DNA of 64,000 bases from an uncultured Acidobacteriota bacterium (GCA_963786195.1 CAWAYH010000009.1:457011-521010), one strand, 5' to 3'; shown: positions 2,283 through 64,000, counted from the stretch's first letter. The notes: generated by a model from the sequence alone, not told the origin. A program made the numbers and translations.

Positions 2283-2319
2283 GCGCCCGTCGCATCGAAC
2301 AACGGCCGCTCGTCTCCCA

Positions 2320-3493: not shown

Positions 3494-3495
3494 CG

Positions 3496-19332: not shown

Positions 19333-19393
19333 GCGGTGAGCGAGATTCAGTACGTGTCGTAACCGACGCCCGCGACATCGGGCAGATGGTACA

Positions 19394-22384: not shown

Positions 22385-22416
22385 GCGGCCCTATACGGCC
22401 GAAAGCCGCTGCGCGT

Positions 22417-23073: not shown

Positions 23074-23271
23074 GGTGTTGTTGCGCTCGCGGATCGGACG
23101 ATCGCTCGCGAGCTCGATCCACTTCGGCCTGCCCGAGCTGACGTCTGTATGAAGGAGGAAGTAGCGGAAAGGTCAACGGTGGGCGAGCGCTCCGGTCTTC
23201 AACTCTAGCACGGGGCCGACTCCTCCGCGGAACCGGGGCCGCGGCCGCCATCGTATACAAGCACAACATCC

Positions 23272-25770: not shown

Positions 25771-25850
25771 CGCGGCCAGCCGACCGCTTCCAGACCGCCC
25801 GGGTGACTGTAGTATGCTCTCCCCCGCATGTCTGCCAAGAGAGCGAGTCG

Positions 25851-27600: not shown

Positions 27601-27614
27601 GGAGGTAGGACTCG

Positions 27615-28340
27615 CATGGCGGACCGGCATCACGCTGCAGGTCGCGCGCTACCGCCCGGAGAGCGAGACGGCGCGCCGACGTTCCAGGAGTACGAGGTGC
27701 CGCTGCCGCAAGGACTGGGTCGTCCTCGACGCGCTGAACTACATCAAGGACCAGCTCGACGGCACGCTGTCGTTCCGCTGGTCGTGCCGCATGGGCATCT
27801 GCGGCAGCTGCGGCATGACCGTCAACGGCGAGCCGAAGCTGACCTGCGCCACCTTCCTGCACCGACTACGCGCCGGGGCCGGTCCGCGTCGAGCCGCTGC
27901 GCAACTTCCCGGTCATCCGCGATCTCGTCGTCGAGATCGGCGACTTCATGCGGAAGCTGACGCAGCGTCAAGCCGTGGATCATCCGCAAGCGAGGAGAAG
28001 CCGCTCTCCGAGGGCGAGTACCTGCAGACGCCGGAGGAGCTGGACGAGTACAAGCAGTTCAGCATGTGCATCAACTGCATGCTCTGCTACGCGGCCTGCC
28101 CGGTCTACGGGCTCGACCCGAAGTTCCTCGGCCCGGCGGCGATCGCCCTGGCGCAGCGCTACAACCTCGACTCGCGCGACGAGGGCGCGCGACGAGCGGC
28201 ATGGAGGTCCTCTCCGAGCACGAGGGCATCTGGGGCTGCACCTTCGTCGGCGAGTGCACCAAGGTCTGCCCGAAGCACGTCGATCCGGCCGGCGCCATCC
28301 AGCGCTACAAGCTGAAGGCCGCGGCCTGCGACTGGTGTCA
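27615..28340 (+). CDS. frdB: Fumarate reductase iron-sulfur subunit, frameshifted
   Basis: ..[68 protein letters not shown] (2Fe-2S), [12 protein letters not shown] and [17 protein letters not shown] (4Fe-4S / 3Fe-4S Cys clusters). Confidence 0.7.
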
Positions 28341-28369
28341 AGTCGTTCCTCATGCCGCGGGGCGGCGCG

Positions 28370-28800
28370 ATGAGCCACGAGCGCCGGCTACACCGAGTAC
28401 CACCCGCGCTGGTACCGGCCGCGCATGTCCACCTACTGGTGGCTGCGCACGCTGGTCGTACCTGCGTTCATCCTGCGCGAGCTGAGCAGCGTCTTCGTCG
28501 CCTGGTTCGTCGTGTTCCTGCTGCTGCTGGTCCGCGCCGTGGCGCAGGGCGACGGCGGCGTACCACGGCTTCCTGCGACTGGTCCGGCAACCCGCTGCGT
28601 GCTCGCTGCTCAACGTCGTCAGCCTGCTCTTCGTCGTCTTCCACGCGGTCACCTGGTTCAACCTGGCGCCGAAGGCGATGGTGGTGCAGGTGGGCGGCAA
28701 GCGCGTGCCCGGCCGTGCTGCATCGCGGCGTCGCAACTATCGCGGCCTGGGTCGTCGTGTCGGCGCTGTCGTCGCCTGGCTCCTGCCTGGGCGGACTGAT
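28370..28800 (+). CDS. frdC: Fumarate reductase membrane anchor subunit C, frameshifted
   Basis: ..[45 protein letters not shown].. resembles E. coli FrdC ([33 protein letters not shown]). Confidence 0.55.
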
Positions 28801-29158
28801 GGCCGAAAGCGACCGCATCGAGCCGCTCCTGTGGCTGCTGTTCAGCGCCGGCGGCGTGGTGGCGGCGCTGCTGCTCCCGGTCGCTGCTGTCTTCCTGTTC
28901 GGCGCTGGCGTTCCCGCTCGGCTGGCTCTCGCCGCCCAGCTACGAGCACCTGCTCGCCGTGCTGCGCCATCCCGCTCACCCGCGCTGGCGCTGTTCGTCC
29001 TCTGCGTGCTGTCGCTGTTCCACTGGGCGCACCGCTTCCGCTACACGCTCTACGACGGGCTGCAGATCAAGCACCTCAACGAGATGATCAACGCCGTCTG
29101 CTACGGCGGCGCGATCGTCGGCTCGCTGGTGGCCGCCTACCTGCTGCTGACGCTGTAG
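28799..29158 (+). CDS. frdD: Fumarate reductase membrane anchor subunit D, frameshifted
   Basis: [35 protein letters not shown]... and C-terminal LFHWAHRFRYTLYDGLQIKHLNEMINAVCYGGAIVGSLVAAYLLLTL* resemble E. coli FrdD ([27 protein letters not shown]). Confidence 0.55.
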   Translation: MAESDRIEPLLWLLFSAGGVVAALLLPVAAVFLFGAGVPARLALAAQLRAPARRAAPSRSPALALFVLCVLSLFHWAHRFRYTLYDGLQIKHLNEMINAVCYGGAIVGSLVAAYLLLTL

Positions 29159-29210
29159 GGGTCAGATCTCTGCATTTCAACATTATGTTGAAATACAAGA
29201 TCTGACCCCT
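29157..29210. terminator. AT-rich 54-bp near-perfect palindrome between convergent frdD and glycoside hydrolase genes; bidirectional terminator or protein-binding palindrome
   Basis: aggggtcagatct-ctgc-atttcaacat-t-atgttgaaat-acaa-gatctgacccct. Arms of 13 bp and 10 bp with a 4-nt bubble. The core ATTTCAACAT-T-ATGTTGAAAT is a perfect 21-bp palindrome. Local A+T is far above background. Confidence 0.5.
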
Positions 29211-29211
29211 T

Positions 29212-30923
29212 ACTTACCGCACGACGCGGAGGTTGGTGGGCGGCGCGGGCGGCGCCGCACTTCCGCTCGCGGCGATCACGAACAGCGTGATGCTCTGCGC
29301 CGGCAGCGTGGCCGTCGAGGCTCGTGCCGGTGACACGTGAGATTCGGTCAGGCGGGTGATGGTATTCGCTGACGGTCAGCTGCCAGACCTGCGCCGTGCC
29401 GCGGTGCGCGAAGTTGGCGAGGTTGATCGTCACCGGCGTCGTTCCCGACAGGTACTTGCTGATGACCATCACCGTCAGCGCGCCGTCGGACGAACGCTGG
29501 GCGGCAAACGCCGCGACGTTGTCCGGATTGGCGGCCGCGGCGCCGCCACGCTGGTGTCGCCGAACGTCGACTTGTTGCCGTCGTAGTTGCGATACATCTT
29601 CATCGCCTTGTAGGTCGGCGTCGATGCGTCGCGGGCGTCGTCCAGCGCGCGCGCCATGTCCAGCCCTTCGCGGCCGAAGATGCCGTAGATGTCCGCCTGC
29701 GTCGTCGCGCCGTTGATGTGGCTCTCGGCGCCCCAGTTGTATTCGGTGATGCCGATCTGCGTGTCCGGGATAGTAAGTGTTGACCCAGTTCCTGCAGGCG
29801 CGGAATCAGCTGCACGCGGTCGTTGATCCAGGTCTCGTCCACGTAGTTCGGGTCCCACAGCGAGCGCGTCGAGCGGTTGCGCCGCAGCTGCATGGCGCTC
29901 GAGACGTCGTCGCTGAATTCGCCGCCCTGCGGATAGTAGTGGACGGTGAAGACGTCGAGCAGCCGCTGGCCGGTTGCGGTGTTGTTCTGGCGCAGCTGGT
30001 CGAGCAGCCAGGGCAGGTAGTCCGCGCCTGCCGTGATTGTTGCGATCGGGGAGGAAGCCCCAGCCGTTGATGCTCCCGTACTGCTGGTCGTAAGCCGCTG
30101 AAGAGGTAGCCGCTCCAGCCCCACTCCTCCGGCCCGACGACGAGCGCCGACGGATCGACGGCCTTGATCTTCGCGCGCGTAGTCGAGCATCTTGTTCCGG
30201 ATCTCCTCCATCGTCGCGCCCGTCGGATGCACGTCGCGATGCGTGGAGTGCCAGATGCTCGGCTCGTTGTCGAGGATGTAGTAGCGCACGCCGCCGTTCG
30301 CGTCGTGCCCCACCGGTTGACCAGGTGCTGCACCCAGCCCTGCTGGAACGTCGAGTTGGACGGCACGTTGGCGTCGTTCGGATCGTTGCCGGTGACGAAC
30401 TGGCCGTTGGTCCGCACGCCGTTGCCCGCGTCCGGGAACCACTGCCAGTCGTTGCCGGTCTGCGCGCCCGTACTTGGCGATCGAGAAACTCGCCAGCTTG
30501 CTGCGGTTCGGCCCGAGCTTCGCCACCCAGTCGATCATCGGAATGGTCAGCATCGCGCTGGCGCCTGCCGCACGGGCGTTCGAGATGAACGTGTCGCCGC
30601 GCTCACCGGGCGTCGCGCTGGCATCGGCGATGCTCTCGAAGTACCAGTCGTTGCCGCGATTGTCGGCGTTCAGCTGCCAGTTGTAGCGGCGTCGTGTTGT
30701 TGCCGCCGTTGCGGTTGAGCGGGGTGTTCAGATCGTTCAACTGCGCGGTCGTCGCGTGCGCAACGCCGTAGACGTTCGGATCGATCGGATGACGATTGGC
30801 GCTGACGTCGACGGTGACCGTGGCAGCAGGATTCTGCGCGAGAGCAGGCGTCGACGACACGACGAGCGAGGCGACTATGAAGACGGTGAGAGTTGCGCGC
30901 CGGCGAGAGAGCAGTATCGTCAT
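29212..30923 (-). CDS. Secreted glycoside hydrolase, GH44-like, frameshifted
   Basis: Signal peptide MTILLSRRRATLTVFIVASLVVSSTPALAQ. Further pieces: ..NRNGGNNTTRYNWQLNADNRGNDWYFESIAD..MLTIPMIDWVAKLG.., ..YYILDNEPSIWHSTHRDVHPTGATMEEI.., ..NDPNDANVPSNSTFQQGWVQHLV.., ..ITEYNWGAESHINGATTQADIYGIFGREGLDMARALD... Pieces sit in three frames. The family call is from memory of GH44 catalytic-domain motifs. Confidence 0.5.
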
Positions 30924-34484: not shown

Positions 34485-36996
34485 GTGCTTCACGACCTCA
34501 AGATCGCTTTTCGTCTGCTGCTGAAAAATCCCGCGTTCACTGCTGTCGCCGTCATCGTTCTGGCGCTCGGCATCGGCGCCAACACGGCGGTATTCAGCCT
34601 GGTCAACGCGATGATGCTCCAGCCCACGGCCGCCGAAGGCCCGGGCATCGTCGGCATCTACTCCAAGGATCGGACACGGCCCGACAGCTATCGCGGGTTC
34701 TCCTGGCCGGACTACGAGCGCGTGCGCGCCAGCCGGGAGCCGTTCGACGCGGTCATGGCCCATAGCGTGACGCTCCTCGGCGCGACTGAAGGCGACACGA
34801 CGAGGCGCTCGTTATGCGCCATCGTGTCAGCGTCGTACTTCACGACGCTCGGCGTGCATCTCGTGGCGGGCCGCGCGTTCACGGCTGACGAAGAACGGCC
34901 GGGCAGCGATCAGCGGGTGCTGATCGTCGGGCACCAGTACGCGCGCAAGGCCGGAGTCGCGCCGGGCGACGTGCTCGGACGGACGGTCCGGCTCAACGCG
35001 CGTGACTACACGATCGTCGGCGTGGCGCCAGAGGGATTCGGTGGCACGACCGCACTCGTCGGAACCGAGTTCTGGGTGCCGCTCGGCGTCTACGACCAAC
35101 GTCACCGATGACATGTTCCGCGACGGCCGCAAGGAGCCGCTGGGCGATCCGCGAGCGCGCGCGCTGATGCTGGTCGGACGCCTCCGGCCCGGCCTCAGCG
35201 AGGAGGCGGCACAGCCACAGCTCGCCGCGTTATCGGCCATCCTCGAGCAGAGCGATCCCGTCGAGAACAAGAACCATGACCTGACCACCCATCGCCTGTC
35301 GCGACAGGCGATCAGCAACTCGCCGCAGGGTGCCGGCCCGACGGTCGTGCTGTCGCTGCTGCTGATGGGCACCGCGGGTCTCGTGCTGCTGATCTCGTGC
35401 CTGAACCTGGCCAACATGCTCCTCGCGCGCGGCTCGGCCCGCCGCAAGGAGATCGCGCTGCGTCTGGCGCTGGGCAGCGGCCGCAGCCGCGTGATCAGGC
35501 AGCTGCTGACCGAGAGCCTGCTGCTCGCCGCGCTCGGAAGTGCGGCTGGCCTGCTGCTCGCCATCTGGGGCACGCGACTGCTCGTCGCCTCGTTCGCCGC
35601 GGCGCTGCCGCTGGTCGTCACGTTCGAGGCACGGCCCGACTTCCGGGTCCTGCTGGCGACGATGTGCTTTGGCGCGGTGAGTACGGTGATCGCGGGTCTC
35701 GGGCCTGCGTGGCGCGTCACCCGTCCCGACGTGCTGCCCGATCTGAAGGAGCAGCCCGCCGATCAGACAGGCGGACGCCGCTTCAGCATGCGCAACGCGC
35801 TGGTCGTCGGGCAGATCGCGCTTTCGCTCGCGCTCCTCACCGCGGCGGGCCTCTTCATGCGCGGCGCGATCAAAGCGGCCATGGCGGATCCCGGATTCCC
35901 GCTCGAAGGCGGCGTCATCGCCAACATCGATCCCGGAATGGCTGGCTACGACGAGGCGCGCGCGCGTGGCGCGATCCGGCGCATCCTCCAGACCGTCCGA
36001 AGCACGCCCGGCGTCCAGTCCGCGAGTCTGGCGAGCCTCGTGCCGTTCGGCGAGTTCCAGGAGGGTGAGCGGGTGCAGAAAGCCGGGACGCCGCCCGCGG
36101 CCGAAGGCCAACCCGAGTCCGGCGTCCAGGCGACCTACACGATCATCGGCGCCGACTACTTCGAGGCGCTGCGGCTGCCGGTCCTGCGAGGCCGCGGCTT
36201 CACCGCGGCTGAAGAGGAATCGGCTGGCGGCGCGCCGGTCGTCGTGATCGACGAGCCCCTTGCCCGTCAGCTCTTCCCGGGCGAGGACGCGCTTGGACAG
36301 ATCGTGCAGTTCGCGCGTCGTGAAACGCCTGACGACACGCACTACACGATCGTCGGCGTCGTCGCGGGCGTCCGCCACGACTTGTTCGACAAGGCGCCGG
36401 TGCCGCACGTGTACGCGCCGCACGGCCAGCGGTTCCGCGCGAACGTCAACATCCACGTGCGTCTGGCCGGCGGCGGCCAGGCGGCCGAGATCGCGATGCT
36501 GGGGACGCTTCGTCAGACGATTCGCGCCCTCGATCCGGCGATCCCCGTGCTGCAGCTCAGAACGCTCGCGCAGCAGCGGGACAAGAGCCTCGCGCTGTGG
36601 GCCGTGAACGCCGGCGCGCAGCTCTTCTCCGTGTTCGGCGGTGTGGCGCTGCTCCTCGCGGTGATTGGCGTCTACGGCGTCAAATCCTATCTGGTCTCGC
36701 GGCGAACGCGCGAGATCGGGATTCGCATGGCGCTCGGCGCGACGCCAACCAACGTGATGTGGCTCGTGCTCCGCGAAGGCCTCGCGCTCACGTCCGTCGG
36801 CGTCCTGATCGGACTGCTGCTCGCCTTTGGCGTGGCGCAGGCGGTTGGCGGCATGCTGTACGAAGTCCGTGCGCTCGATCCGATCGTCTTCATCGCGGCG
36901 CCGATCGTGCTGTCCGCCGCCGCCCTCGCGGCGTCCTGGTTCCCCGCGCGTCGCGCGACACGCGTCCTTCCAATCACGGCATTGCGATCGGAGTAG
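34485..36996 (+). CDS. ADOP-family (MacB-like FtsX) ABC transporter permease; single frameshift near 35095
   Basis: MLHDLKIAFRLLLKNPAFTAVAVIVLALGIGANTAVFSLVNAMMLQP...; frame switch at ..FWVPLGVYD / NVTDDMFRDGRKEPLGD..; FtsX motifs LISCLNLANMLLARGSARRKEIALRLALGS and ..SRRTREIGIRMALGA; ends ITALRSE*. Confidence 0.75.
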
Positions 36997-51533: not shown

Positions 51534-52535
51534 TACATGTCAGCGTCAGGGAGCTCCGCCGCCGGCAGCGTCGTCAGCCATCGCGCGAGCCAGCCGACGG
51601 GCCCCGGCGCCTGGAGTGCGCGCGCGAGCCGCAAGTCCATGCCGGCGAGCGGCACGAGGTCGCGCTCGAGGAATGCGGTGAAGAGCCATCTCGTCATGCG
51701 CGCACGGGCCGCGTCCAGAGCCCTGAACCCCGTTCGCGGCACGGCAAAGATCGGGACGACCTCGACACCCTCCGCCTTCGGCGTCGCGCACAACATCAGG
51801 CGGCTCCGGATCGCCCCGACGTCGCTGCGCACGACGATGACCGTCCCGCCCCAGCAGCGGATCGTCGCGCGAATGCAGTCGCCCGACAGCCACTTGATCA
51901 TTCGATCGGACAGGCCGTGGCCCGTCACGCGCGACTCGTAGGCGAGCTCGAGGCCGTCGGTGCCGAGCAACCGCACGTCCGGTTCCTGCCGCAGGGCACG
52001 TTTATGGACCGCCTGCATGTGGGCGATGTCGAACCCGTTCGTTGCGACGGAACCCCAGGAGGTCTCGACGAGCGCCGGTCGACCGACGATCACGTGGAGC
52101 TGGGGATCTCCTGTGTCGCCGATCGAGGGGAATTCGAAAGTGGCTTCACGCCCGGCAAAGACAAAGACCGCGCCGGACCGTTCGACCACCGGATACACGG
52201 GCTGCGACAGGCAGGCGTTGCCGGCCGGGGCGTGACACACGCCTGCAGGATCGTGGGTCCAGTGGTGCAGCGCGCACTGGAGGTTGTCCCCCACGACGGT
52301 CCCGCGTCCCAGGTGCGCGCCCATGTGCGCGCAGCGGGCATCCAGTGCCACCAGGGCACCGCCGCGGCCGCGGTAGACGACCAGCGCGTGGCCGAGGAGC
52401 GTCCATGTGACGACGCGGCCCGGCGGGAGCTCACGGGATCGACAGACGAAATACCAGGAACGCGGCGCAGCCGGCAGCGTGGTCGCGGAAACAGGCTCCG
52501 GACGGATCGATTGCCGTGCAATCACACGCGCTCCG
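51533..52535 (-). CDS. Rieske [2Fe-2S] domain protein (oxygenase-type, PAO/ring-hydroxylating-like)
   Basis: CAHMGAHLGRG...-CALHHW (CxH...CxxH Rieske ligands). Probable start VIARQSIRPEPV.. near 52535. The upstream half of the ORF-track entry is read-through into the desaturase gene. Confidence 0.6.
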
Positions 52536-53457
52536 ATTCTGGAGACGGCAGGGGCCGGGGTCCCCGCCACATGCTGAGATACATCCGCAGGAACGACGGC
52601 CGTGGCGCCTCGAAGTCCACGTACTCGCCGAGATGAATCCACGGCACCTCCGGGTGCTGGTGATGCGCCCGATGGTGGTGATAGTTGAGAAAGACGTATT
52701 GAGTCGCGCGGCTCACTTTCAGATTCCAGGCGCCGTCGCGCGTGTCGAGCTCCGACCACGCGTGGTCGGCGTACTGAAGAGCGCTCCAGTTGATCGCGAA
52801 CGCGGCGTAGCAGGCCGCCCACCCGGCGATCGAGAGATCGAGCAGCATCCACAGCAGGATCTGGATCGCCGCCGACGCCAGAATCTCCACCCGCATCCGG
52901 TTCCAGCCGGCTGACTGGATGCCGTCCAGCATCGCCTCGACGCCGACGTGCTCCAGGACCTTCGAGCCGCGCGTGTCGATCGCTCGCGCCAGGACACGCT
53001 TCGGCACGCACAGGACGAGCAGGCATCCGAGCGGCGGCACCAACCAGTAGAGCCCCGTCAGGATCCCGTACCACTGCACGAACTTCAGCAGCTTACTGTC
53101 CTCGGGCGCGTAGTAGTCGAACCGTTCGACCTCGGTCCGGTTGCGCCGGTGATGTCCGAGGTGGCACATCCGATGGAACGTGAATCCGGTGGGAAACGAC
53201 GCGGCGAGCAGCCGGCCCGACCACTCGTTGACGCGAGGGTCCGGATGGAACTTGCGGTGGACGCACTCGTGCAGCAGCGAGTACATCGTGTTGTTCGTGA
53301 ACGAAAACGCACAGGCCGCCAGCAGGACGCCGGTCCAGGAGCTGGCATGGGACGCGAGGTACAGCAAGGCCGCGTTCGCGGACAACACGACGATCCCGAG
53401 TGCGACGTTGAGTGCGCGTGGGATCCCGAGTATCTCCCGCGCGTGACGTGCTTTCAT
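52522..53457 (-). CDS. Membrane fatty-acid desaturase family protein (three His boxes)
   Basis: MKARHAREILG... with HECVH, HLGHHR, HHHRAHH histidine boxes and 4 TM helices. Confidence 0.8.
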   Translation of the reverse strand: MKARHAREILGIPRALNVALGIVVLSANAALLYLASHASSWTGVLLAACAFSFTNNTMYSLLHECVHRKFHPDPRVNEWSGRLLAASFPTGFTFHRMCHLGHHRRNRTEVERFDYYAPEDSKLLKFVQWYGILTGLYWLVPPLGCLLVLCVPKRVLARAIDTRGSKVLEHVGVEAMLDGIQSAGWNRMRVEILASAAIQILLWMLLDLSIAGWAACYAAFAINWSALQYADHAWSELDTRDGAWNLKVSRATQYVFLNYHHHRAHHQHPEVPWIHLGEYVDFEAPRPSFLRMYLSMWRGPRPLPSPESERV

Positions 53458-54051
53458 CGTGTCCCCCCGGCGCGTTTCGGAGATCGACTCAGGAGCATGC
53501 CGACGAGAATCCCGGCGACGGCTGCGGCAGCCCCCACGCCCCACAGGTTCCGCCGGGCTGCTGTCAGGAGCGGGTTGTCGAACAGGTTGACCGACGCGTG
53601 AAAGGCCGCAATCTTCCATCGACCGTCGTGCCGCACGACCGTCGCCGTCCAGCGGCTGTTGACGTCGAGCGAGAGGCCGCTGGTCAGCTTGAAGTGGTCG
53701 CGCGAGCTGCCGAATGCCACGCCCGTGTCCGGCTCCGTGAAGGATCGTGAGCTCGTCCACGGTTGGCGCGGCGGTGAATTCGTCGACGAGCCGGTTGGGA
53801 CCTTCCGTCATGCGAGAGATGTAAGCGCGGACGCCTTCCGGCTTTCTGCTGACCTCGGCGTTCTGCCACGTGACGACCACGTCGGGATGGAGGTGCTGAA
53901 GCAGCCGCGTCAGGTCACGCTTGTTCAGGCTGTCGACGAGATCGTCGCGCAGCGCGCGAAGCTCCGCGTGCGCCGGGTCTTCCGCAGGTTGTCCATTCGA
54001 CGCGCCCACCAGCGTCATCAGCACCACGGCCAAGAACGGCACACGAATCAT
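53454..54051 (-). CDS. Secreted NTF2-like / SnoaL-like small protein (DUF4440-like); one frameshift
   Basis: Signal peptide MIRVPFLAVVLMTLVGASNGQ, ..LHPDVVVTWQNAEV..; second frame ..WTATVVRHDGRWKIAAFHASVN.., which is the NTF2-fold C-terminus. Confidence 0.45.
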
Positions 54052-55106
54052 CCTCGTCCTCCACTCAGCTTTTCAGCTCTCAGCTTGTGCCCCATTGGCT
54101 GAGAGCTGACCGCTGACAGCTGACCGCTAAAAACAAATGTGATGAGCCGCCGCATCAGCTCCGGTACGCGAGGCGTCCGGAAGTAGTGATCCGTCCCCCA
54201 CACCGGATACACGAGACCCGGCTCGACGATCGCGTCGCGCAGCAGCGTGAGTCCATCGTTGGGCCCGAGGTGCGCCATCTGCTGGTGGCGCATCCGGCCG
54301 AACCGAGTCGTGAGGTGATGCGAGAGCGGACAGCCGATCAGGTTCACCACGGGGAGACCGGCAGGAGCGGACGCCCGCCGGCTGAGGGCCGACTGCGTGG
54401 TGAACTCCTCAGCCAGTGCAGGGCGAGCGCCGCCGCGCGCGAGAAGATATCGAAGCGCCAGACGCCGCCACCAGCGTGCGAGCATCCAGTCGATGGCCGG
54501 TGTCCCGTGCACCAGGCCGCTGACGATGACCCACGCGCGCAACCCCCGGGGAAGCGAGGACATCGACTCCAACGCAAGCCGCGTATCGGCCGCTCCCTTG
54601 CTCAGCGAGACCACGACGGTCGATTCAGTCACGTAATCCGGAAGCATGGTTCGCAGAACAGCCGCATTTTCGTGCGCGGTGCCGGCGCTCCGTGTCGGCA
54701 GCACCTCGACGTCGAGTCCCGCTTCGAGGGCCGCACGCTGCACGACCGCGCCATCGCCGCCGATGTCCGGACGCTCGCGGTAGAAAAGCGCGGGAACGAT
54801 GAGGACCCTGCCCCGCGCGCGGCCGATCGTCGGCGCCGACGCGGCGCCATCCAGCGCGTCAACGAGCGCGCGATTCTGCGGAGCGCGCCGGATCCGGTCA
54901 TAGAACAAGGTGGTCGCGAAGTCGATGCCGTGACGGACGGCGAGGTCGCCGAGCCGCTCGCGGTTGCAGTGCTCGTAGTCGACGTCAGGGTAAGCCGCAC
55001 GTACGCGCGCCAGCAGCTCGGCCTCGCGTCCGGCCATCACGGCGTCGGCCCGCGCGCCGGCGCCGGGCAGAGCGTGATCGAACTGAGGCCGCGCCGCCGT
55101 CAGCAT
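54048..55106 (-). CDS. Hypothetical protein (no family recognised), intact from MLTAARPQ
   Basis: Coding-like composition; sits co-directionally between the NTF2-like and GH3 genes. Start taken at Met40 of the ORF-track entry. The overlap with the GH3 stop is 7 nt. Confidence 0.45.
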   Translation of the reverse strand: MLTAARPQFDHALPGAGARADAVMAGREAELLARVRAAYPDVDYEHCNRERLGDLAVRHGIDFATTLFYDRIRRAPQNRALVDALDGAASAPTIGRARGRVLIVPALFYRERPDIGGDGAVVQRAALEAGLDVEVLPTRSAGTAHENAAVLRTMLPDYVTESTVVVSLSKGAADTRLALESMSSLPRGLRAWVIVSGLVHGTPAIDWMLARWWRRLALRYLLARGGARPALAEEFTTQSALSRRASAPAGLPVVNLIGCPLSHHLTTRFGRMRHQQMAHLGPNDGLTLLRDAIVEPGLVYPVWGTDHYFRTPRVPELMRRLITFVFSGQLSAVSSQPMGHKLRAEKLSGGRG

Positions 55107-56821
55107 GAAAGTTCTCGTTCGGGGGACGCGCCGGACGGAACACGCAGCACGCCTTCCCACCCGCTTTCCCGATGCAGCGACACCGGCTTGACGTCGCCCA
55201 GCCGCTGACCCTTCGCGACGCACGCGTCCACGTACGCGCGATCGGCGTCAGGACCGACGGACACGACGCGCGCCGGGCGAAGCTGACCGAGGTCGACGCA
55301 CCACGAGTAGTGCGGGTTGCGCCGGAGCTCGCGCTCCAGCGACGTCGCAAGGCCTGGGGGCAGCGCCCCGTCGGGCTCCGGAGGCTCAACGAGCAGCGTG
55401 TACGAGGTCGCGCCGCCGGAGGATTCGGGCGCAAGCATCGCAAACCTCGGCGCAGCCCAACCCTCGAACAGCCTGGCAAGCACGCCGGCCACGAATCCAT
55501 CGCTCAGCTTCTCGCCAAAGCGATCCGACACGCGGTCGGCCCGGCCGACGAACCGTAGCGATGGCGTGGCATCGATCCAGCCGTTCACGCGCACGTTGTC
55601 CCCCAACCGATAGCGATACAGGCCGCCGCCGGTCGTCACCACAACGGAGTAATCGACGTCGCGCTCCAGCTCGTGCGCGAGGAGCGCCTGGCCCGCGGGG
55701 TCGAGGAACTCGAAGAAGTGCGATCGGATCGCAAGCGGATGGAGGCCGCCAAAGGGAATCGACACGATCGCTTCGGTTGCGATCAGGCCCTTGGGCTGGA
55801 CTGGAACACCCTTCAGCTCGTGCGTCAGCTTCTGCGCGTAGGATTGTGCCGGACCGTCTCCCCAACAGCTCACGAGACCGAGGTCAGGCCACAAGTTCTC
55901 GGGACGAAGATCATCAATCTGCCGCAGGGCCGCCGCGCGACGCGCATCGGGCGTCAGCCGGCGCAGGAGTCGACCGCGCACGTCGCTCGAGATGGATCCC
56001 GGCGGCGTGAGCGAGCCGCGCTCGACGTCCGCAATCAGGCGATCGCGCCACGCCGGCAGCCCGTCGATCAGCCTGGAAAGAAACGACGGATGCCAGACCG
56101 AAATCAGCCGCAGCGCGCGTGCTCGGATCAGGAACAACAGCGTGACGTAGTGGAACGCATCGGGATCGGTGACGAAACGGATGTCATCCGGCACCGCCAC
56201 GACCGCACGGATCAGCGCGCGGCGCGCGGCGCCCAGGTACGCCGAGTCGTCTTCGAACCCAACCGGGACCACGTGATCGCTGCCAAGCCGCGCGGAGGCA
56301 AGCGTGTCGGCCGAGAGCGCCGGGGTGATCGACCAGTACGCGGGCCCGCCAGCCAGGCTCGGCCTGCTGCGGAACAGATCGACGACCCAGGCGTCGATGG
56401 CCCGGCTGAATTCGCGCTGCAGCCCGATCGTGCTCGGCAGCAGCTTCGCCGCCGCAGTCGAGCCGCTGGACGGCGCGAGGCGTCTGACGGTCTCCTGCGT
56501 CATCACGCCCGGCTCGCCCCGGGCAACCCGTCGAACGAGCGGCTCGAGATCGTCGTACGTCGCGATCGGCACCTGATCCCGATAGCGTTCGACGACGTCC
56601 TGCCAGGTTGCGCGCCCCGCGTCCGCCAGCTGCAGCGTTTTCACGATTCGTGAAAACCGGCACGCGCGACCGACGACCGTCTCGCCGTTGTTCTGCAGGT
56701 ACGCAGCCAGGACGTCGAGCTGCGCACGCGCCGGGTCGCGCAGCGCCACACGGAACCGCTGCCACGCTCGCGCGCTTGCTCCCGCCCAGAGCAGATTCAC
56801 CGCACTGCAGCGAACATCCAC
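55100..56821 (-). CDS. GH3 (auxin-responsive promoter) family acyl-acid amido synthetase homolog, intact 573 aa
   Basis: Adenylate-forming-fold signature ..YSVVVTTGGGLYRYRLGDNVRV.. characteristic of GH3/JAR1 family. ..SSGSTAAAKLLPST.. is the P-loop-like region. Confidence 0.7.
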   Translation of the reverse strand: MDVRCSAVNLLWAGASARAWQRFRVALRDPARAQLDVLAAYLQNNGETVVGRACRFSRIVKTLQLADAGRATWQDVVERYRDQVPIATYDDLEPLVRRVARGEPGVMTQETVRRLAPSSGSTAAAKLLPSTIGLQREFSRAIDAWVVDLFRSRPSLAGGPAYWSITPALSADTLASARLGSDHVVPVGFEDDSAYLGAARRALIRAVVAVPDDIRFVTDPDAFHYVTLLFLIRARALRLISVWHPSFLSRLIDGLPAWRDRLIADVERGSLTPPGSISSDVRGRLLRRLTPDARRAAALRQIDDLRPENLWPDLGLVSCWGDGPAQSYAQKLTHELKGVPVQPKGLIATEAIVSIPFGGLHPLAIRSHFFEFLDPAGQALLAHELERDVDYSVVVTTGGGLYRYRLGDNVRVNGWIDATPSLRFVGRADRVSDRFGEKLSDGFVAGVLARLFEGWAAPRFAMLAPESSGGATSYTLLVEPPEPDGALPPGLATSLERELRRNPHYSWCVDLGQLRPARVVSVGPDADRAYVDACVAKGQRLGDVKPVSLHRESGWEGVLRVPSGASPERELSC

Positions 56822-56826
56822 GATCG

Positions 56827-57555
56827 TCAGCCCTTCAGGCTCCTCGCAATCCGCGTCCCCGCCCGGGTCAGGTTGTCTTCGTGAACGCGCGTCAGGCAGA
56901 CGAGCTCGTCGCCGTGGATGTACCCGGGATTGCGCTCGAGAAAGAACGTGACGTGGGCGTCATGAGTGCGCCCGAGGGGTACGTCGAGCAGCTCCGGCAC
57001 GAGTACCTGAGGTCGATCGAACCGCACGATCCCGCGCTCCGAATCGTAGAGATCCCCGAACCGCTCGCGAGCCAGGGTGTCGAGCAGCGAGCCCGCAACG
57101 CCGTCCGAGTCGTAGCGGGGATGGAACTCGCGGAAGAACACGGGCAGAAAGCGGTACGTTCGAAACCCCGACGTCAGCAGAAGCCAATACAGGTCGCCGC
57201 CGTCCGGGCCGGCGAGCTGTTTGACGGCCCGCAGCCATGTCAGCGGAAGCGCCGAGCTTCCCCACCAGCGCGGATCGACGATAGTGTCGCCGGAATAGAC
57301 GATGGTCGCGTCGACGTTCGTCGCCTGGCTGCGATAAACCTGCAGCGTCGAGAAACCATGAACCGATCCGGAATCGTCTTCGAGGAGGATCACCCGGTTC
57401 TTCCCCGCGAGATCCGACTCGAACGTGTCTCGATCGACGCCCGTGAAGGACGTCGACAACAAGGCGAACATCGCGTCACGGTCGCCGTCCCCGAGCGACG
57501 TGCGCTCGACGATGCGGCCGGCAAGTCGTGTCGGTGCAGAGGTGATTGGGGTCAT
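56827..57555 (-). CDS. GNAT-fold acyltransferase-like protein
   Basis: Real start MTPITSAPTRLAGRIVERTSLGDGDRDAMFALL.. (ATG overlaps the stop of the upstream gene, ATGA at 57552-57555). Fold assignment is tentative. Confidence 0.45.
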   Translation of the reverse strand: MTPITSAPTRLAGRIVERTSLGDGDRDAMFALLSTSFTGVDRDTFESDLAGKNRVILLEDDSGSVHGFSTLQVYRSQATNVDATIVYSGDTIVDPRWWGSSALPLTWLRAVKQLAGPDGGDLYWLLLTSGFRTYRFLPVFFREFHPRYDSDGVAGSLLDTLARERFGDLYDSERGIVRFDRPQVLVPELLDVPLGRTHDAHVTFFLERNPGYIHGDELVCLTRVHEDNLTRAGTRIARSLKG

Positions 57556-58865
57556 AGGATTGCCAACTCCGGCTGTGACGGTCGGGGATCGACCGATCGG
57601 GCCAGTGCTTCGCCGTCCGGCCAGAACGCGAGGTACACGACGCTCTCGTAGGCCCGGTGTCGAAAGCGCCGGCGGATCCCGCGCAGCAGCGTGCTCCGCT
57701 CCGAGAGTCCAAGTGCCACGTAGTCGAGCCCGTCCAGCCGTGCGCGCGCGCACGCGTCGGCCACCAGCGCTCCCAGCACGTCCTCATCGTCGTCGTCCAC
57801 GGCGACGTGCGACAGGTAAGCAAACGCGAGCGAGGTGCCGACCGCGGGCAGCGTTGGAATTCCGGTCCAGGGGGCCGCGAGATTGATCACGTGCCGCCAG
57901 TGCGCGAGCCGGCGGCAGTAGCCGCGGACGACGACCTGCTTGAACGCTCGTTGATCCCAACGGGCGAGGCAGCCGACGATGCGCCCCTGTCGCGTCGCGA
58001 CGAGGAAGTCGTCCATGCTCAACCCTCGCGTTCGGAGCGTCGAGAGCAGGTCGTGTGCGGTCCAGCGTGGATGCAGCTGATAGCGTCGGCCGTTCCGGTG
58101 CAGGCACTCGACGATTGCATCGATGGCCGTCAGCGAACCTCGTTGAATGCGAACGTCACCCGGCGTGGCGGGCCGCCGCGGGGCGCGAGCCGGAATCGCC
58201 AGCGTGACGAGCCGATCGAGCGGCTCGAAGCGGGGCCATCCGGGCGAACCGCGCGTCAGCAGCCGCGCGGCGCCGGCGTTGTCTGCCACGATCGAGGCCA
58301 GATACATGCGCGCATCGCCGGCGAGGTGCAGCTGGCGGCAGAAGTGGAAGCCCGCATCCATCAGGCCGCGACGGCTTCGGAAGGCGGGATCGATGCGAAG
58401 CTGGCCGAGGTAGCCGAGCCGGTCCGGCTTTCCGTTGATGAACGCGTCGCGCACGCTGCGGCTGGCAACGGCGGCGAGCTTCCCGGTGGCGCGCTGGCGG
58501 GCGACGATCAACTGGTGCACGTCTCCTTCGATGGAGGCGGCAGCGAGGCTGTCCGGCTCGCGCTCGAGCGAGAGGCTGACGTCACCGGGGAACGCTGTCT
58601 CACGCAGCAGCGTGCGTATCGCGGAATCGTCGTCCCGCGAGGCGAGCTCGAGGGTGTACGACGCCGACCAGCGACGCGCGGCCGCGCGCGCCCGCTCGTC
58701 GCGGTCGGGAACGACCGGCAGAGGCGCCGTCAGTGCGCGCGCAGCAGCGAGCCCGTTCCACGATTCGTCTCCCAGCGGAAAACCGTCGCGCCGCTTCGTG
58801 TCGACCCGCAGCATGCTGTTGATCGGGAAGAAGTTGCGAAACATGAACGCGTCCGCGCGATTCAC
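57552..58865 (-). CDS. CelD/FemAB-like (tandem GNAT) acyltransferase, intact 437 aa
   Basis: Two GNAT-like halves. Family assignment from overall architecture only. Confidence 0.45.
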   Translation of the reverse strand: MNRADAFMFRNFFPINSMLRVDTKRRDGFPLGDESWNGLAAARALTAPLPVVPDRDERARAAARRWSASYTLELASRDDDSAIRTLLRETAFPGDVSLSLEREPDSLAAASIEGDVHQLIVARQRATGKLAAVASRSVRDAFINGKPDRLGYLGQLRIDPAFRSRRGLMDAGFHFCRQLHLAGDARMYLASIVADNAGAARLLTRGSPGWPRFEPLDRLVTLAIPARAPRRPATPGDVRIQRGSLTAIDAIVECLHRNGRRYQLHPRWTAHDLLSTLRTRGLSMDDFLVATRQGRIVGCLARWDQRAFKQVVVRGYCRRLAHWRHVINLAAPWTGIPTLPAVGTSLAFAYLSHVAVDDDDEDVLGALVADACARARLDGLDYVALGLSERSTLLRGIRRRFRHRAYESVVYLAFWPDGEALARSVDPRPSQPELAIL

Positions 58866-60102
58866 CTCATCGAACCCCCGGCGGACGATGCTCGACCAGC
58901 CGTAGAAAGAGCGGCGGGCTCGCAGGCAGTGACTGCTGGAGCTCCTCGGGACTCATCGGGGACGGCGGAACGGCACCATGTTGTAGCGGTACGCGCTCGT
59001 CGAGCCACCACGCGTTCGTAACAGCAGCCGGCTTGTCGGACTTCGAGGCGCGTGTACAAGGGCGTACCGGGAAACGGCGTCAGGTGATTGAACGCGGCGA
59101 TGTAGAAGCTGTGCGCCTTGGCGAATTCCGTCGCGTGCGCGAAGCTCTCGGCCGTGTCGGCGTCGTAGCCAAAGATGAACGTCGCGTAGAGCCGGAGCCG
59201 GTGTCGCCGCAGGTTGGCGAGCGCCGCCTCGTAGCCGCCGCGCATCGTGTTGAAGCTCTTGTTCATCGCCGGCGAGGGCGACCGGGTTGAGGCTCTCGAA
59301 GCCGATCAGCACGCCCTGGCAGCCGCTGCTGCGCGAGCAGATCGAGGAACTCTTCGTCGTGCGCGGCGTTGATGCTCGACTGGCTGACCCAGCGGATGCC
59401 GAGCGGACGCGAGCGCGCGGAAGAACTCCTTCGCCTCCGCCAGGTTCGACGTGATGTTGTCGTCGACGAAGAAGAACAGCTTCTTGCTGTCGCGTGATCG
59501 AGCGCGACCTCGGCGATGACCTCATCGAGCGGCCGACGCGTCTGGGTGTTGCGCGAACATCGATCTGCACGGCGCAGAACTCGCAGCGGAAGTGACAGCC
59601 GCGCCCGGCCTCGACGAGACCGATCGGCAGATAGCGCTTGCCGCGAAAGATCCGGCGGTCCGGCCGCAAGCCGCGCAGCGAGGGCCGCCGTTCGGCGCGA
59701 TAGAACGGCTCCAGCTGCCGTGACGGAAGTCGTCGATCGAGCCGCGGCCAGATCTCCTCCGCCTCGCCGATGACGACCGCTTCGGCGTACCGCGAGACCT
59801 CGTCGGGGCAGAGCGTCGCGTGAAAGCCGCCCATGACGACCGGCATGCCGCGGCGCGCGATACTCGCTGGCGATCTGATACGGCGCGCCGCGCCGTGTAG
59901 GTCTCGACGCTGATGGCCACGAGGTCCGTCGGCTCGTCGAACGGAATCTGTCTCCATCCGATCGTCGTAGAACCGGATCGTCGACATCTGATGGCGTCAG
60001 TCCGGCGATCGTGGCCGGCGGCAGCGGCTCCATCTCCCAGGAGCGGATGTAGCGCTGCCCCGCGCGGCGGCCGATGCACGGATGAATGAGCGTGAGCCTC
60101 AT
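58862..60102 (-). CDS. B12-binding radical SAM protein, paralog 1; at least 10 frame switches
   Basis: MRLTLIHPCIGRR...; ..DLVAISVETYTARRA / YQIASEYR / GMPVVMGGFHATLCPDEV (B12-binding domain); KRYLPIGLVEAGRGCHFRCEFCAVQ (CxxxCxxC); ..TRRPLDEVIAEV..; LGIRWVSQSSINAAHDEEFLDLLAQ; SGCQGVLIGFESLNP; C-terminal NKSFNTMRGGYEAALANLRRHRLRLYATFIFGYDADTAESF...TPFPGTPLYTRL. Pieces alternate among all three frames. Confidence 0.6.
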
Positions 60103-60136
60103 CGCGTGCCGCCATCGCGACGACCGGTCGCGGACG

Positions 60137-61490
60137 TCAGCGCCGGCCCGCCCGGCCCGATGATCCAGTCGCAGTTGTAGAACCGGTGCAGGTTGTGGGC
60201 GTAATGCCGGTAGCCGAGGTTCGTGCCGAGATGGCAACCCACGGCGATGCCGGGACGGCGCGAAGCCGTCGCGCGATCGACGGCAGCGAATACACGTAGC
60301 GCCACGCCTCCTCCGTGCCCTCGCTGCAGCTGCTGCGACGCTCATGCGCAGCCGGCTCGAACACGACGTGCTGACCGTCGTAGAGCTCCCAGTTTCTCGT
60401 CAGGATCCGTCCCTCGCGCTCGAGGCGCTGATAGAGCGCGCGTGCCCGGGAACGGCGTGACGATCGGCGAATCGCGGCAGATCGATGCGCGCGTCCACGG
60501 CGAATCGCGCGGTCTCGAGGAACACATCCGGCGTGTCGTGATCCATGCCGAACACGAAGCAGCCATAGACCGCGATGCCGTGCGCGTGCAGCAACGCGAC
60601 GACTGTCCTTGAACCTCGATCCGGCTGGTTGAAGCTCTTGCTCGAGCCGCGCAGGTTGTCCGCACGGATCGATTCGAATCCCATGAGCAGACCGCGGCAG
60701 CCGCTCCGCGCCGCGAGCTTCAGCAGCGGCAGATCGTCTGCCAGCAGCACCGTCGAGAGGCCGTACCACTGGACCTTCAAGCGGAATCAGCGCTTCGAAC
60801 AGCCGCTCGGCGTACTGCGCGTCGGCGATGAGGTTCAGGTCGACGAAGATCAGCTTGCGCGCGCCGTGCTGACGCGGATGTCCGCGACGACGTCTTCGCA
60901 CGGGCTTCTGGAACGGCTTGCGTCCCCAGGCGGCGGGCACGACGCAGAACTCGCAGTTGTGGATGCAGCGCGCGCGTCGCTTCGAACACGTTGTTGGTCA
61001 GGAAATCGCGCGCTCCGGCAGCAGGTCGCGGCGCGGGAACGGACGTCCGGCCAGCGAGAGATCCGGCGCCTGCGCGTAGCGCGGCCGCATGCCGGTCCCC
61101 GCGACGAAGTCCCGCAGCAGCTCGCGGCCACGTGTCTTCGGCGTAGCCGACGACGATCGGCGTCCGCGTGCGGCTGCGCGTCGTCAGGGACGAGCGTGAC
61201 GTGAGGACCGCCGAGCACGACGGTGATACCGCGCGCGCGGAACGGCCGCGGACAGCTCGTAGGCGCGCGGCGCCGTGCCCGTGATGACGGTGATGCCGAC
61301 GAGATCGACCTGCAGTCTGCGGATCGACGTCTTCGATGCCTTCGTCGATGAGCGTGCAGATCGGCGTCGAGCTCCGGCGGGCACGAGCGACGCAAGCGTC
61401 GTCAGCGTGAGCGGTGCGTAGCGAAGCGATCGGCGGAAGATGCCGCCGCGATGACGATAGAGCGGTCCCTTTGGCGAGAATCAGCGCAAT
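60137..61490 (-). CDS. B12-binding radical SAM protein, paralog 2; heavily frameshifted
   Basis: ..GITVVLGGPHVTLVPDDAQPHADA.. (B12 domain); ..TNNVFEATRGCIHNCEFC.. reconstructed across a frame switch; ..RQHGARKLIFVDLNLIADAQYAERLFEALIPL..; ..WYGLSTVLLADDLPLLKLAARSGCRGLLMGFESI..; C-terminal ..IAVYGCFVFGMDHDTPDVF...LYQRLEREGRILTRNWELYDGQHVVFEP. Same domain order as paralog 1. Confidence 0.55.
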
Positions 61491-61679
61491 TTTCACGAGA
61501 AGCCACCCCCGATGGAATGAAGCTACGTGGCGAGCGTGCCGTGACCGTGAGCGGCAGGCTGAAAAAAGGCTGAGAAAGGGTGATCCCCGGGGTGTTTGTC
61601 AACCTGCTGGGGAGAGCAGGTTACGAAAGACGCGGCCGGGAACGGCGAGTTGGCCATCCGTCCCGGCACGGCTTTGGGA

Positions 61680-61860
61680 GGAGAGGCTGACACTTAGGAC
61701 AACGACGGCTCGGCGGCGAGCGAAAGTCCCGCTGACGGTAATGCGGAGGGTTGCCCGGTAGTCGACGGTTGGGAGGGCCGGAAGTGGACGGACACGGGCC
61801 ACTCCTCCGAGAAATCGTCAGGCCGTCGTGACCTGCTGCGGGACCTCACGACGTGCAGTT
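61680..61860 (+). ncRNA. Candidate cobalamin (B12) riboswitch aptamer
   Basis: Ordered matches to the B12-element core, shown as ours ~ E. coli btuB leader. ACUUAGGACAAC ~ AAUAGGGAA. GGCGGCGAGCGAAAGUCC ~ GGUGCGAAUCC. CCCGCUGACGGUAAUGCGG ~ CGCAGCGGUAAGG. GGACACGGGCCACUC ~ GGACACUGCCAUUC. GAGAAAUCGUCAGG ~ GGGAAGUCAUCAUC. GACCUGCUGC ~ GACCUGCCGG (B12-box end). P1 candidates GGCUGAC (61685-61691) / GUCAGGCC (61819-61826). Sits in a ~700-bp gap with no credible ORF on either strand. The reverse complement shows none of these elements. Confidence 0.4.
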
Positions 61861-62191
61861 CGTAGTACTGACGCGTGCCGCGGTCGGGAACGACCTCGAT
61901 CACGACCACGGCGTCGGCCCGATGCAGAGGGCCGTCGCAGATAGCGACGTCAGGACCGTGTCAAAGCGAACGCTGAGCGAGGCAGCGCGCACCGTCGTGG
62001 TCTGCCGGGTGCGAGGACAATCGCAGGTCCACAGGCGTCGCTGCGGGGTTCCCCCACTCGCCGCCATCGCGATCCCAGACCGAGGAAAGGGACCAAGGCG
62101 CATCGCCGAACTCCCAAACGGCCTCAGTCCCACGTTCGAGAGTCTCCGTGTTTAGGGGGTTGGCACCTTTTCGGCAGGTGGGAGTTCACGT

Positions 62192-64000
62192 CTACTCGTC
62201 TCGCAGCGCCACCATCGGATCCAGACGCGCGGCGCGGAGGGCGGGGACGCCGCAGGCGACGAGCGGCGATGACGAGGAAGCACGGCAGCCATCGACGACG
62301 AAGGTGCGGGATCGGTCGGCTCGACACCGACGAGCATGGTTCGCATGACGCCCGTCAGCGCGAACGCGGCGAGCAGACCGCCGCCGCAATGCCCGCGGCG
62401 CTCAGCCAGAGGCCCTGCCCGACCATCATGCGGAAGATGCGCCGGTGCTCGGCGCCGAACGCCATGCGCACGCCGATCTCCGCGTGTCCGCTGCCGCACC
62501 GACGGTCGACAGCACGCTGTAGAGACCGACAGCCGCGAGCACCAGCGCGATGGCGGCGAAAATCGCGATCAGGACGAGCGCGAACTTCGTCTGCGCCTGC
62601 GCGCGCCCGATGAACGTCGTCATCGGCTGGACTTCGATGACGCCGGCGCGCGGGTTCAGCTCGGCCACGGCCGCCTTGACCGGTCGATGCGAGTCGCGAG
62701 CGGATCGCCGCTCGTCCGCACTGCCCAGCGATTGGCCGCGCCGAAGCCCCATGTACGCATCGGGGACGAAGATCGCTTCGCGACCGTCACGCGCGAGCGA
62801 TCGCGTGCCGCTGATGGTCGACGACGCCGATGACCTGGAAACGCTCCGGCTCCGGCGTGCGCAGGCGCGCGAGGAGGGTACGGCCGACGGCCGACTGTCC
62901 GGGGAAGGCCTTCGACGCGAGCACGCGATCGATGACGATCGACCGCGACGTCGGGCGTTGTCGGCGTCCGTGAACGTCCGCCCTTCGATCGACCCGTCGT
63001 TCGCATGGCTTCGAAGTAACCAGGCAGGACGGAGTGCGCCGTCGCCTGCTGAAACTTCGACGGATCCGCTCAGCGCCTCTTCGGTCCCCCATCGCGCGAG
63101 GCCCTCGCGCGCCTCGAGCGGGAAGGGGCTCGCCGCGGTCACCGCCTGCACGCCCGGCATGCCGCGAGCCGCGGCGGAGATCGCGCACGAACGCCTGACG
63201 CGCCTGTCGGATCCGGCAGTCGCAGATTCGGGATCAGGAACGTCAGGACGCCGTTGGGATCGTAGCCGGGCTGCGCGCGCTGCAGCGCGATGAAGCTGCG
63301 GATCATCAGTCCAGAACCGACGAGCAGCACGAACGACAGCGCGACCTCCGCCACGACGACCGGTTGCGCAACCAGTTGCCTGACGACAGCCCGCTCGTGC
63401 GCCCGGCGCGCCTGAGCAGATCCATGACGTCGGGACGCGATGCGCGCAGCGCCGGAACCAGCCCGAAGACGATCGCCGACACGACGGCCGGCAGCCGCGG
63501 CAAACGTCAGCACGCGCGGATCGATCGCCACGCGCTCGAGGCGCGGCAGATTCGCCGGCCCGAGCGCCAGTCAGCAGCCGGATCCCGAGCCATGCCAGCC
63601 CGATGCCGGCAATTGCCGCGAGCCCCGACAAGCACCAGGCTCTCGGCGAGCATCTGCCGCACGAGACGCGCACGGCTGCTGCCGAGCGCGGCGCGAACCG
63701 CCAGCTCGCGCTCGCGCGACGCCGCACGCACGAGCAGCAGGTTCGCCACGTTCGCGCACGCGATCAGCAGCACGAACGACACGGCACCCATGAGCGCGAG
63801 GATCGCCGGTCGTACGTCGGCGACGAGATCCGTGTGCATCGGCTCGATGCGGAAGTACACGCCCGCGGTCTGCTTGATGGGGAATTGCGATCGCAGATCC
63901 GCGGCAAGCGCGTCGACGTCTGCTGCTGCGCCTCGCCCGACCGCGACACGCCGTCCTTCAGGCGGCCGATGACGCGCAGGAACACGTTGATGCGGGAGCC
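62192..64000 (-). CDS. ADOP-family FtsX permease, 3' portion (N-terminus beyond window end); multiple frameshifts
   Basis: ..[58 protein letters not shown] (FtsX); ..[33 protein letters not shown] (MacB periplasmic domain); ..[28 protein letters not shown]..; ends ..[14 protein letters not shown]. Pieces sit in three frames. Confidence 0.6.

Follow-up and report, generated by a model that had tools for sequence, protein, structure and literature searches.

RESULTS

Two adjacent radical SAM genes are scattered over three reading frames

We studied a pair of adjacent radical S-adenosylmethionine (SAM) genes, here called rSAM1 and rSAM2, whose reading frames are broken many times over in the deposited sequence of an uncultured Acidobacteriota bacterium (GCA_963786195.1, CAWAYH010000009.1:457011-521010). 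The whole stretch of 64,000 nucleotides (nt) was analyzed and is referred to as the window; its G+C content is ~68%. Both genes lie on the minus strand, rSAM1 at positions 60099 to 61496 and rSAM2 at positions 58730 to 60102, and their pieces are spread across all three frames of that strand between 61496 and 58730. The TGA stop codon of rSAM1 overlaps the start codon of rSAM2 as ATGA, so that the two genes share 4 nt; the true stop codon of rSAM2 is the TGA at 58732 to 58730. Orthologs of the two genes encode proteins of 460 and 451 amino acids (aa), respectively.

Once the frames were corrected, both genes were found to encode a B12-binding domain at the N terminus and, after it, a radical SAM core that contains a CxxxCxxC motif. 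The corrected rSAM1 and rSAM2 proteins scored 49.9 and 37.4 bits, respectively, against PF02310 (B12-binding; Pfam gathering cutoff, 32.1) and 31.2 and 56.6 bits against PF04055 (Radical_SAM; cutoff, 29.5). In rSAM1, the motifs are CIHNCEFC (60967 to 60944), FGMDHDT (60552 to 60532), and VTPFPGT (60461 to 60441), and in rSAM2 they are CHFRCEFC (59597 to 59574), FGYDADT (59173 to 59153), and LTPFPGT (59083 to 59063). An earlier annotation of the window made from its sequence alone, the original prediction, had described this order of B12-binding domain, CxxxCxxC motif, and C-terminal block for both genes, and our corrected translations agree with it.

A hand-stitched translation of rSAM2 retrieved thousands of intact homologs, mostly of ~451 aa, the best of which were 90% identical; the names given by the sources include Vicinamibacterales radical SAM proteins. 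None of the NCBIfam equivalog cutoffs for BchE, HpnJ, HpnR, PhpK, or rSAM_ladder_B12 was reached, the best scores being 65 to 78 bits against cutoffs of 360 to 650. Judged by their sequences, the two proteins are ordinary class-B, cobalamin-dependent members of the radical SAM superfamily and form part of an uncharacterised subfamily.

The frames are broken mainly by single-base insertions

Because the high-scoring segment pairs of a plain tblastn search cannot form before the frame changes, we counted the frameshifts with our own aligner, a protein-to-DNA dynamic programming procedure with explicit +1 and −1 states. The reference proteins were those of a syntenic ENA contig, L001; the counts depend on the aligner penalties and on orthologs that are 79 to 87% identical in DNA and may each be off by a few events. 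rSAM1, over a span of 1382 nt and at 89.8% aa identity, required 21 shifts (19 +1 and 2 −1), and rSAM2, over 1370 nt and at 90.4% aa identity, required at least 18 (16 +1 and 2 −1). These numbers provide the indel count against an intact homolog that the original prediction had proposed as a check. Together, the pair harbors 39 events, 35 of them single-base insertions. The frame was predicted to change constantly, about every 100 to 150 nt; it does change constantly, but the actual spacing is denser, with one event per ~71 nt.

The frame changes are not a product of chance alignment, since the same procedure found no shift in the two genes directly downstream or in the GH3, ~330-aa, fatty-acid desaturase, and Rieske genes that lie beyond them. 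Residue-level alignments with L001 were continuous through every junction in rSAM1, rSAM2, and the MacB-type permease gene upstream of the pair. In the corrected frames of these three genes and of an FrdA gene located elsewhere in the window, we looked for in-frame stop codons and found none. Over the 6.3 kb that these four genes cover, 70 insertions stand against 9 deletions, and the corrected identity is 87 to 90%.

We then examined the insertions at the nucleotide level, in an alignment with L001 and two further relatives, L003 and L004. Of the indels private to the window over 2.8 kb, 38 were insertions and 2 were deletions, a picture also given by blastn, whereas each of the three relatives had 1 to 3 private events of either kind. 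The inserted bases were C (13), G (10), T (4), and A (4), and in only 7 of 31 cases did the inserted base adjoin an identical one, compared to an expected 15.7 (P of about 0.001). A search for a homopolymer or motif context around the insertions revealed no homopolymer association and no clear motif. As the insertions are rarely found beside an identical base, they are not classic homopolymer errors.

The corrected genes bear no signature of decay

At the codon level, the ratio of nonsynonymous to synonymous divergence (dN/dS) between the corrected genes and L001 was 0.155 for rSAM1, 0.170 for rSAM2, and 0.196 for the MacB permease gene. In a four-way comparison, private aa changes in rSAM1 and rSAM2 numbered 11 and 7 for the window, 7 and 5 for L001, and 12 and 11 for L003. 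The corrected proteins are 89 to 90% identical to those of L001, and L001 and L003 are also 89 to 90% identical to each other. On the window branch, we counted 44 private nucleotide substitutions, about as many as the 39 frameshifting indels. Neither a rise of dN/dS toward 1 nor a lineage-specific excess of aa changes was found in the pair. Drift that yields ~20 indels per gene should also bring many substitutions, some stop codons, and an inflated dN, and none of these was seen.

Between positions 56836 and 64000, the synonymous divergence (dS) of the window from L001 is uneven: 0.31 to 0.40 for the MacB, rSAM1, and rSAM2 genes, rising to about 1.2 in the next two genes downstream. The aa identity between L001 and L003 is likewise 89 to 90% for the radical SAM proteins and 60 to 74% for their neighbors. 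A chimeric contig was considered as the source of the contrast and disfavored. Since the relatives show a similar contrast when compared at the aa level, it most likely reflects ordinary rate heterogeneity.

Syntenic relatives carry the pair as uninterrupted genes

A comparison with the syntenic region of related genomes had been suggested together with the original annotation. On L001, a MacB-type permease gene is followed in turn by a 387-aa gene, the two radical SAM genes of 460 and 451 aa, which overlap by 4 nt, and genes of 389 and 242 aa. The pair is also present on the syntenic contigs L003, L004, and L005 and on one further contig. Where the relatives reach far enough, it is accompanied by GH3, a ~340-aa gene, DUF4440, a fatty-acid desaturase gene, and a Rieske gene, with PAP2 in two of them. 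Gene order, gene lengths, and the 4-nt overlap are colinear between the window and four relatives, and the orthologs are plain, uninterrupted open reading frames (ORFs). L001, L003, and L004 are metagenome contigs of 13 to 22 kb and probably derive from short-read assemblies.

On L005 (ENA ERZ25039469 contig_27206, 1.43 Mb), the rSAM2 ortholog at 10001 to 11221 is called as 406 aa instead of 451 aa; one frameshift of a like technical origin may be the reason. Among the ten nearest rSAM2 clusters, the closest member, P0258, which lies on this contig, is 95% identical over a local 345 aa. L005 groups with the L001 population and not with that of the window.

We also searched for an in-frame copy closer to the window. 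Scanning genome contigs with the intact downstream protein gave only a 47%-identical locus in a Polyangiaceae metagenome-assembled genome, and the best identity in a scan of metagenome contigs was 61%. A search for near-identical in-frame fragments of a corrected 217-aa MacB segment reached 79% at best. Of six exact look-ups of window ORF proteins, the one with the 242-aa protein alone gave records, placing it on a contig in the 0.2- to 1-Mb class and on a Logan contig of 1872 nt (run ERR15459712). If colinear, the start of the Logan contig maps to ~58653, ~100 nt from the edge of the disrupted stretch, as extrapolated from gene coordinates; this is only a hint.

The disrupted stretch ends sharply downstream of rSAM2

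The radical SAM pair lies within a longer error-dense stretch, D, that extends from 58752 to 64000, where it runs off the end of the window, with ~1 extra base per 70 to 80 nt. It comprises 62 frameshifts in three genes, and the median frame segment along a codon-usage Viterbi path is 148 nt. The third gene, of which only the 3′ part lies in the window (62195 to 64000, minus strand), encodes a MacB/FtsX-type ABC permease and is located upstream of the pair; compared to L001, it has 23 frameshifts (19 +1 and 4 −1) over 1806 nt at 88% aa identity. Stretch D also crosses the spacer between the permease gene and rSAM1. At the other end, its edge falls inside the overlap between rSAM2 and the next gene, the last event being a GG to GGG insertion at 58752 to 58754.

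Beyond this edge lies a nearly clean block (51557 to 58751, minus strand) that served as a control and holds the Rieske, fatty-acid desaturase, DUF4440, ~330-aa, GH3, 242-aa, and ~389-aa genes. One frameshift was found in its 7.2 kb, a +1 at 53730 in the DUF4440 gene, and none in the other six genes. At the rate of the radical SAM pair, the chance of the event-free run of 5 kb from 58753 to 53731 is exp(−70). The neighbors of the pair had been predicted to be intact. This is true of the downstream genes, including GH3, which has no frameshift, but not of the upstream permease gene with its 23.

The 437-aa ORF that follows the pair (57552 to 58865, minus strand) was likewise predicted to be an intact gene and to be CelD-like. 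It is uninterrupted but chimeric, joining the C terminus of rSAM2 (58865 to ~58755) to a gene of ~389 aa. Its first ~37 residues, VNRADAFMFRNFFPINSMLRVDTKRRDGFPLGDESWNG, are the C terminus of the 451-aa rSAM2 orthologs. The fusion arises because the GG to GGG insertion at 58752 to 58754 bypasses the rSAM2 stop codon, so that reading continues into the next gene. The junction is legible directly in the sequence, and the real start of the ~389-aa gene is a GTG at about 58762. Between 58658 and 57555, the ~389-aa gene has no frameshift relative to its L001 ortholog, and the same holds for its 242-aa neighbor. We found no Pfam or NCBIfam match for the ~389-aa gene, and the CelD-like label is therefore unsupported. 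Its relative on L004 gave a faint Acetyltransf_1 signal only.

The single event in the control block has a similar outcome: the +1 at 53730 splits the DUF4440/SnoaL-like gene and creates a 509-aa ORF (52522 to 54051, minus strand) in which it is fused to the fatty-acid desaturase gene.

Three more parts of the window show frequent frame changes

The frameshift density had been regarded as peculiar to the radical SAM pair. It is not, as three other stretches of the window, mapped with our own codon-usage Viterbi path across its whole length, share the pattern. The median frame segment in these stretches (A to C) is 144 to 177 nt, compared to 791 to 2983 nt in the intervening blocks. Stretch A (435 to 4818, minus strand; 19 Viterbi segments, median 161 nt) covers glycosyltransferase, methyltransferase, and O-antigen-type membrane protein genes and is denser below about 2300. 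In stitched translations, its Pfam Glycos_transf_1 and Methyltransf_23 matches were continuous across frame junctions. Stretch B (16863 to 19407, minus strand; 13 segments, median 177 nt) contains a 2-oxoacid dehydrogenase E1 alpha/beta gene, for which E1_dh, Transket_pyr, and Transketolase_C were each recovered as a single Pfam match spanning frame junctions.

Stretch C (22391 to 30888; 48 segments, median 144 nt) includes a membrane protein gene, a MacB paralog, frdABCD-like genes, and a GH44 hydrolase gene whose Pfam match (Glyco_hydro_44) is a single one across 5 frame junctions. Within it, the gene for the FrdA/SdhA flavoprotein of fumarate reductase/succinate dehydrogenase (25851 to 27605, plus strand) showed 17 frameshifts (16 +1 and 1 −1) at 87% identity to an intact 579-aa homolog (P0122). 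The MacB paralog of this stretch (23272 to 25767) has ~27 frameshifts, while another MacB paralog at 19967 to 22360 has none. Overall, the dense stretches measure 2.5 to 8.5 kb, have an indel content of about 1.2 to 1.4%, and make up ~20 of the 64 kb, about a third of the window.

In a clean block, a further MacB/FtsX paralog (34485 to 36996, plus strand) is represented by ORFs of 208 and 664 aa, with an apparent single +1 near 35103. This position is approximate because the alignment was made to a paralog of 35% identity.

Surroundings of the pair

The spacer between the permease gene and rSAM1 (61461 to 62192, ~730 nt) looks noncoding and has a strong positive GC skew. A scan of 61300 to 62400 with Rfam gave no match and hence no cobalamin riboswitch. 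At this position, the relatives have a 387-aa hypothetical gene (L001 and L005), an FA_hydroxylase gene (L003), or a 120-aa ORF (L004).

The genes from ~51557 to 61496 (minus strand) form a cluster that is conserved in L001, L003, L004, and L005 and comprises the two radical SAM genes, the ~389-aa and 242-aa genes, whose products fall into no family, GH3, a ~340-aa gene, DUF4440, the desaturase, sometimes PAP2, and Rieske. The GH3 protein of the cluster gave a weak match to the OlsH model (38 bits; cutoff, 620). OlsH, a GH3-like lyso-ornithine-lipid synthetase, was reported from planctomycetes in recent work (PMC12493201). A possible role of the conserved cluster is to modify a membrane lipid, such as an amino-lipid.

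DISCUSSION

Origin of the frameshifts

We are confident that the frameshifts in the radical SAM pair are an artefact of assembly or consensus calling and represent no real feature. This judgment is based on evolutionary and spatial arguments, namely, the excess of insertions, the lack of relaxed selection, the sharp edges of the blocks, and the same signature in unrelated genes 32 to 60 kb away. All of these speak for one of the options that the original prediction had listed, a localised consensus problem. In the organism, both genes would be intact, under selection, and translationally coupled, within a gene cluster of a type conserved in Vicinamibacterales. The frameshifts would be uncorrected single-base errors in the contig consensus, overwhelmingly spurious extra bases. 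The window is a mosaic in which accurate blocks alternate with dense stretches of 2.5 to 8.5 kb, one of which encloses the pair. A technical cause is indicated because these stretches disregard gene borders and strike conserved genes of central metabolism.

The error pattern, its block structure, and the absence of an evolutionary signature of decay are direct results of the analysis; the sequencing platform and the reason why particular stretches stayed uncorrected are inferred. For a soil-type acidobacterium, a contig of several hundred kilobases suggests assembly from long reads. Most likely, a metagenome assembly of the long-read type would have left stretches with too little depth, or stretches missed by polishing, and the consensus of these stretches, which are of read-like length, would keep insertion errors like those of raw reads.

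Several points weigh against a consensus error. The insertions seldom adjoin an identical base, unlike the homopolymer errors of nanopore, 454, and Ion Torrent data, for which such errors are typical. The errors were inferred and not observed in reads, and some events that lie close together in pairs may be real in-frame differences. Stretches A to C rest partly on a Viterbi path that is noisy at single junctions. Finally, an in-frame copy from the same population was not found, the best relatives being 79 to 87% identical in DNA.

The original prediction had listed real, recently decayed pseudogenes, a localised assembly or consensus problem, and reads from mixed strains as options and had favored none of them. 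If the pair were real, recently decayed pseudogenes, it would have been inactivated and then have gathered indels; in favor of this, the deposited sequence does have broken ORFs here, while the cluster is open downstream of them. We nevertheless consider it very unlikely. Bacterial pseudogenes have deletions at least as often as insertions, whereas here 35 insertions face 4 deletions; a curated set of 151 bacterial pseudogenes had 696 indels, or roughly 4.6 in each gene, of which 396 were deletions and 300 were insertions (PMC6054270). Moreover, the radical SAM genes combine ~20 indels each with no in-frame stop codon, dN/dS values of 0.15 to 0.17, and no excess of private aa changes, and on the private branch indels are about as numerous as substitutions. 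The same damage is seen in the MacB permease, FrdA, E1 dehydrogenase, GH44, and glycosyltransferase genes, and the blocks cut across genes. Thus, only the disruption of the frames fits a pseudogene, and the evolutionary marks of decay are missing. A less probable alternative still is that the extra bases are real and that kilobase-long tracts of very recent insertion mutagenesis run through otherwise well-conserved genes. One candidate agent would be a polymerase, error prone and biased toward insertions, at work in patch repair or recombination. Blocks of genes would then be silenced at once, before substitutions accumulate, and a mutational process of this tract-wise kind would be a new phenomenon. 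One could also imagine that the frame is restored during expression, by programmed ribosomal frameshifting or transcriptional slippage. Every segment is indeed open in the "right" frame, but nothing further speaks for such recoding, the orthologs are plain uninterrupted ORFs, and the pair would need 39 sites in 2.8 kb that share no slippery motif and mostly lie outside homopolymers. We know of no recoding system that tolerates frameshifts at a density of this order, and we regard the chance of one here as negligible.

Two other technical explanations were considered. Merging of reads from coexisting, microdiverse strains could have led the consensus caller to insert spurious bases at positions that vary among the strains. 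This reading also takes the frameshifts as an artefact; it is unlikely, yet it deserves more weight than the biological ones: the contig is of metagenome type, close relatives are abundant in many samples, and the patchiness could track patches of strain divergence. However, single-nucleotide polymorphisms between strains yield substitutions rather than a 9:1 excess of 1-nt insertions, and the highly conserved radical SAM and FrdA genes, in which strains should vary least, are hit as hard as fast-evolving ones. The collapse or misjoining of the two tandem paralogs, which had been offered as an example of an assembly problem, is scarcely credible. The two genes are adjacent and share their domain order, but their products are only 36 to 38% identical and the single weak DNA match between them is 65% over 379 nt, far too divergent for a collapse. 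Since the paralogs are only ~37% identical and the locus follows four relatives colinearly in gene order, gene lengths, and the 4-nt overlap, we exclude this explanation; in addition, the defect consists of single-base insertions without any rearrangement, and unrelated single-copy genes elsewhere in the window are equally affected.

Taking the frameshifts as consensus errors, the radical SAM pair is best treated as intact, and its broken state has little biological import. The consequences for the use of the contig are more practical. Gene calls, pseudogene counts, completeness estimates, and claims of novel short ORFs from the dense stretches are unreliable, the fused 437-aa and 509-aa ORFs among them. 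Outside the clean blocks, results from this contig that depend on genes being broken or uncommonly short should also be discounted.

Comparison with known systems

As proteins, rSAM1 and rSAM2 resemble the class-B radical SAM enzymes BchE, HpnJ/HpnR, and PhpK and the B12-dependent enzyme of the ladderane cluster, with which they share the domain order and the CxxxCxxC motif; weak NCBIfam matches were obtained to BchE, HpnJ, PhpK, and rSAM_ladder_B12.

In their broken state, the genes are reminiscent of the pseudogenes of Burkholderia leaf-nodule symbionts, in which recognisable genes with multiple frameshifts lie beside intact ones (PMC6054270). However, pseudogenes of reductive genomes have few indels each, along with substitutions, stop codons, and relaxed dN/dS, whereas the radical SAM genes of the window have ~20 insertions each, no stop codons, and dN/dS values of 0.15 to 0.17.

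The closer likeness is to unpolished or low-coverage long-read assemblies, with which the window shares the splitting of genes by indels, corrected proteins that are nearly identical to their homologs, an uneven density of events, and a very long contig. Indels that fragment genes are a well-known problem of long-read assemblies, which IDEEL-type checks and tools such as Kastor are reported to address. PacBio continuous long reads, more than nanopore reads, typically show stochastic errors that are mainly insertions, and the events of the window resemble these more than the deletions and homopolymer errors of nanopore data. The window differs from the usual indel errors of long reads in that about 89% of its events are insertions and that most of them lie outside homopolymers.

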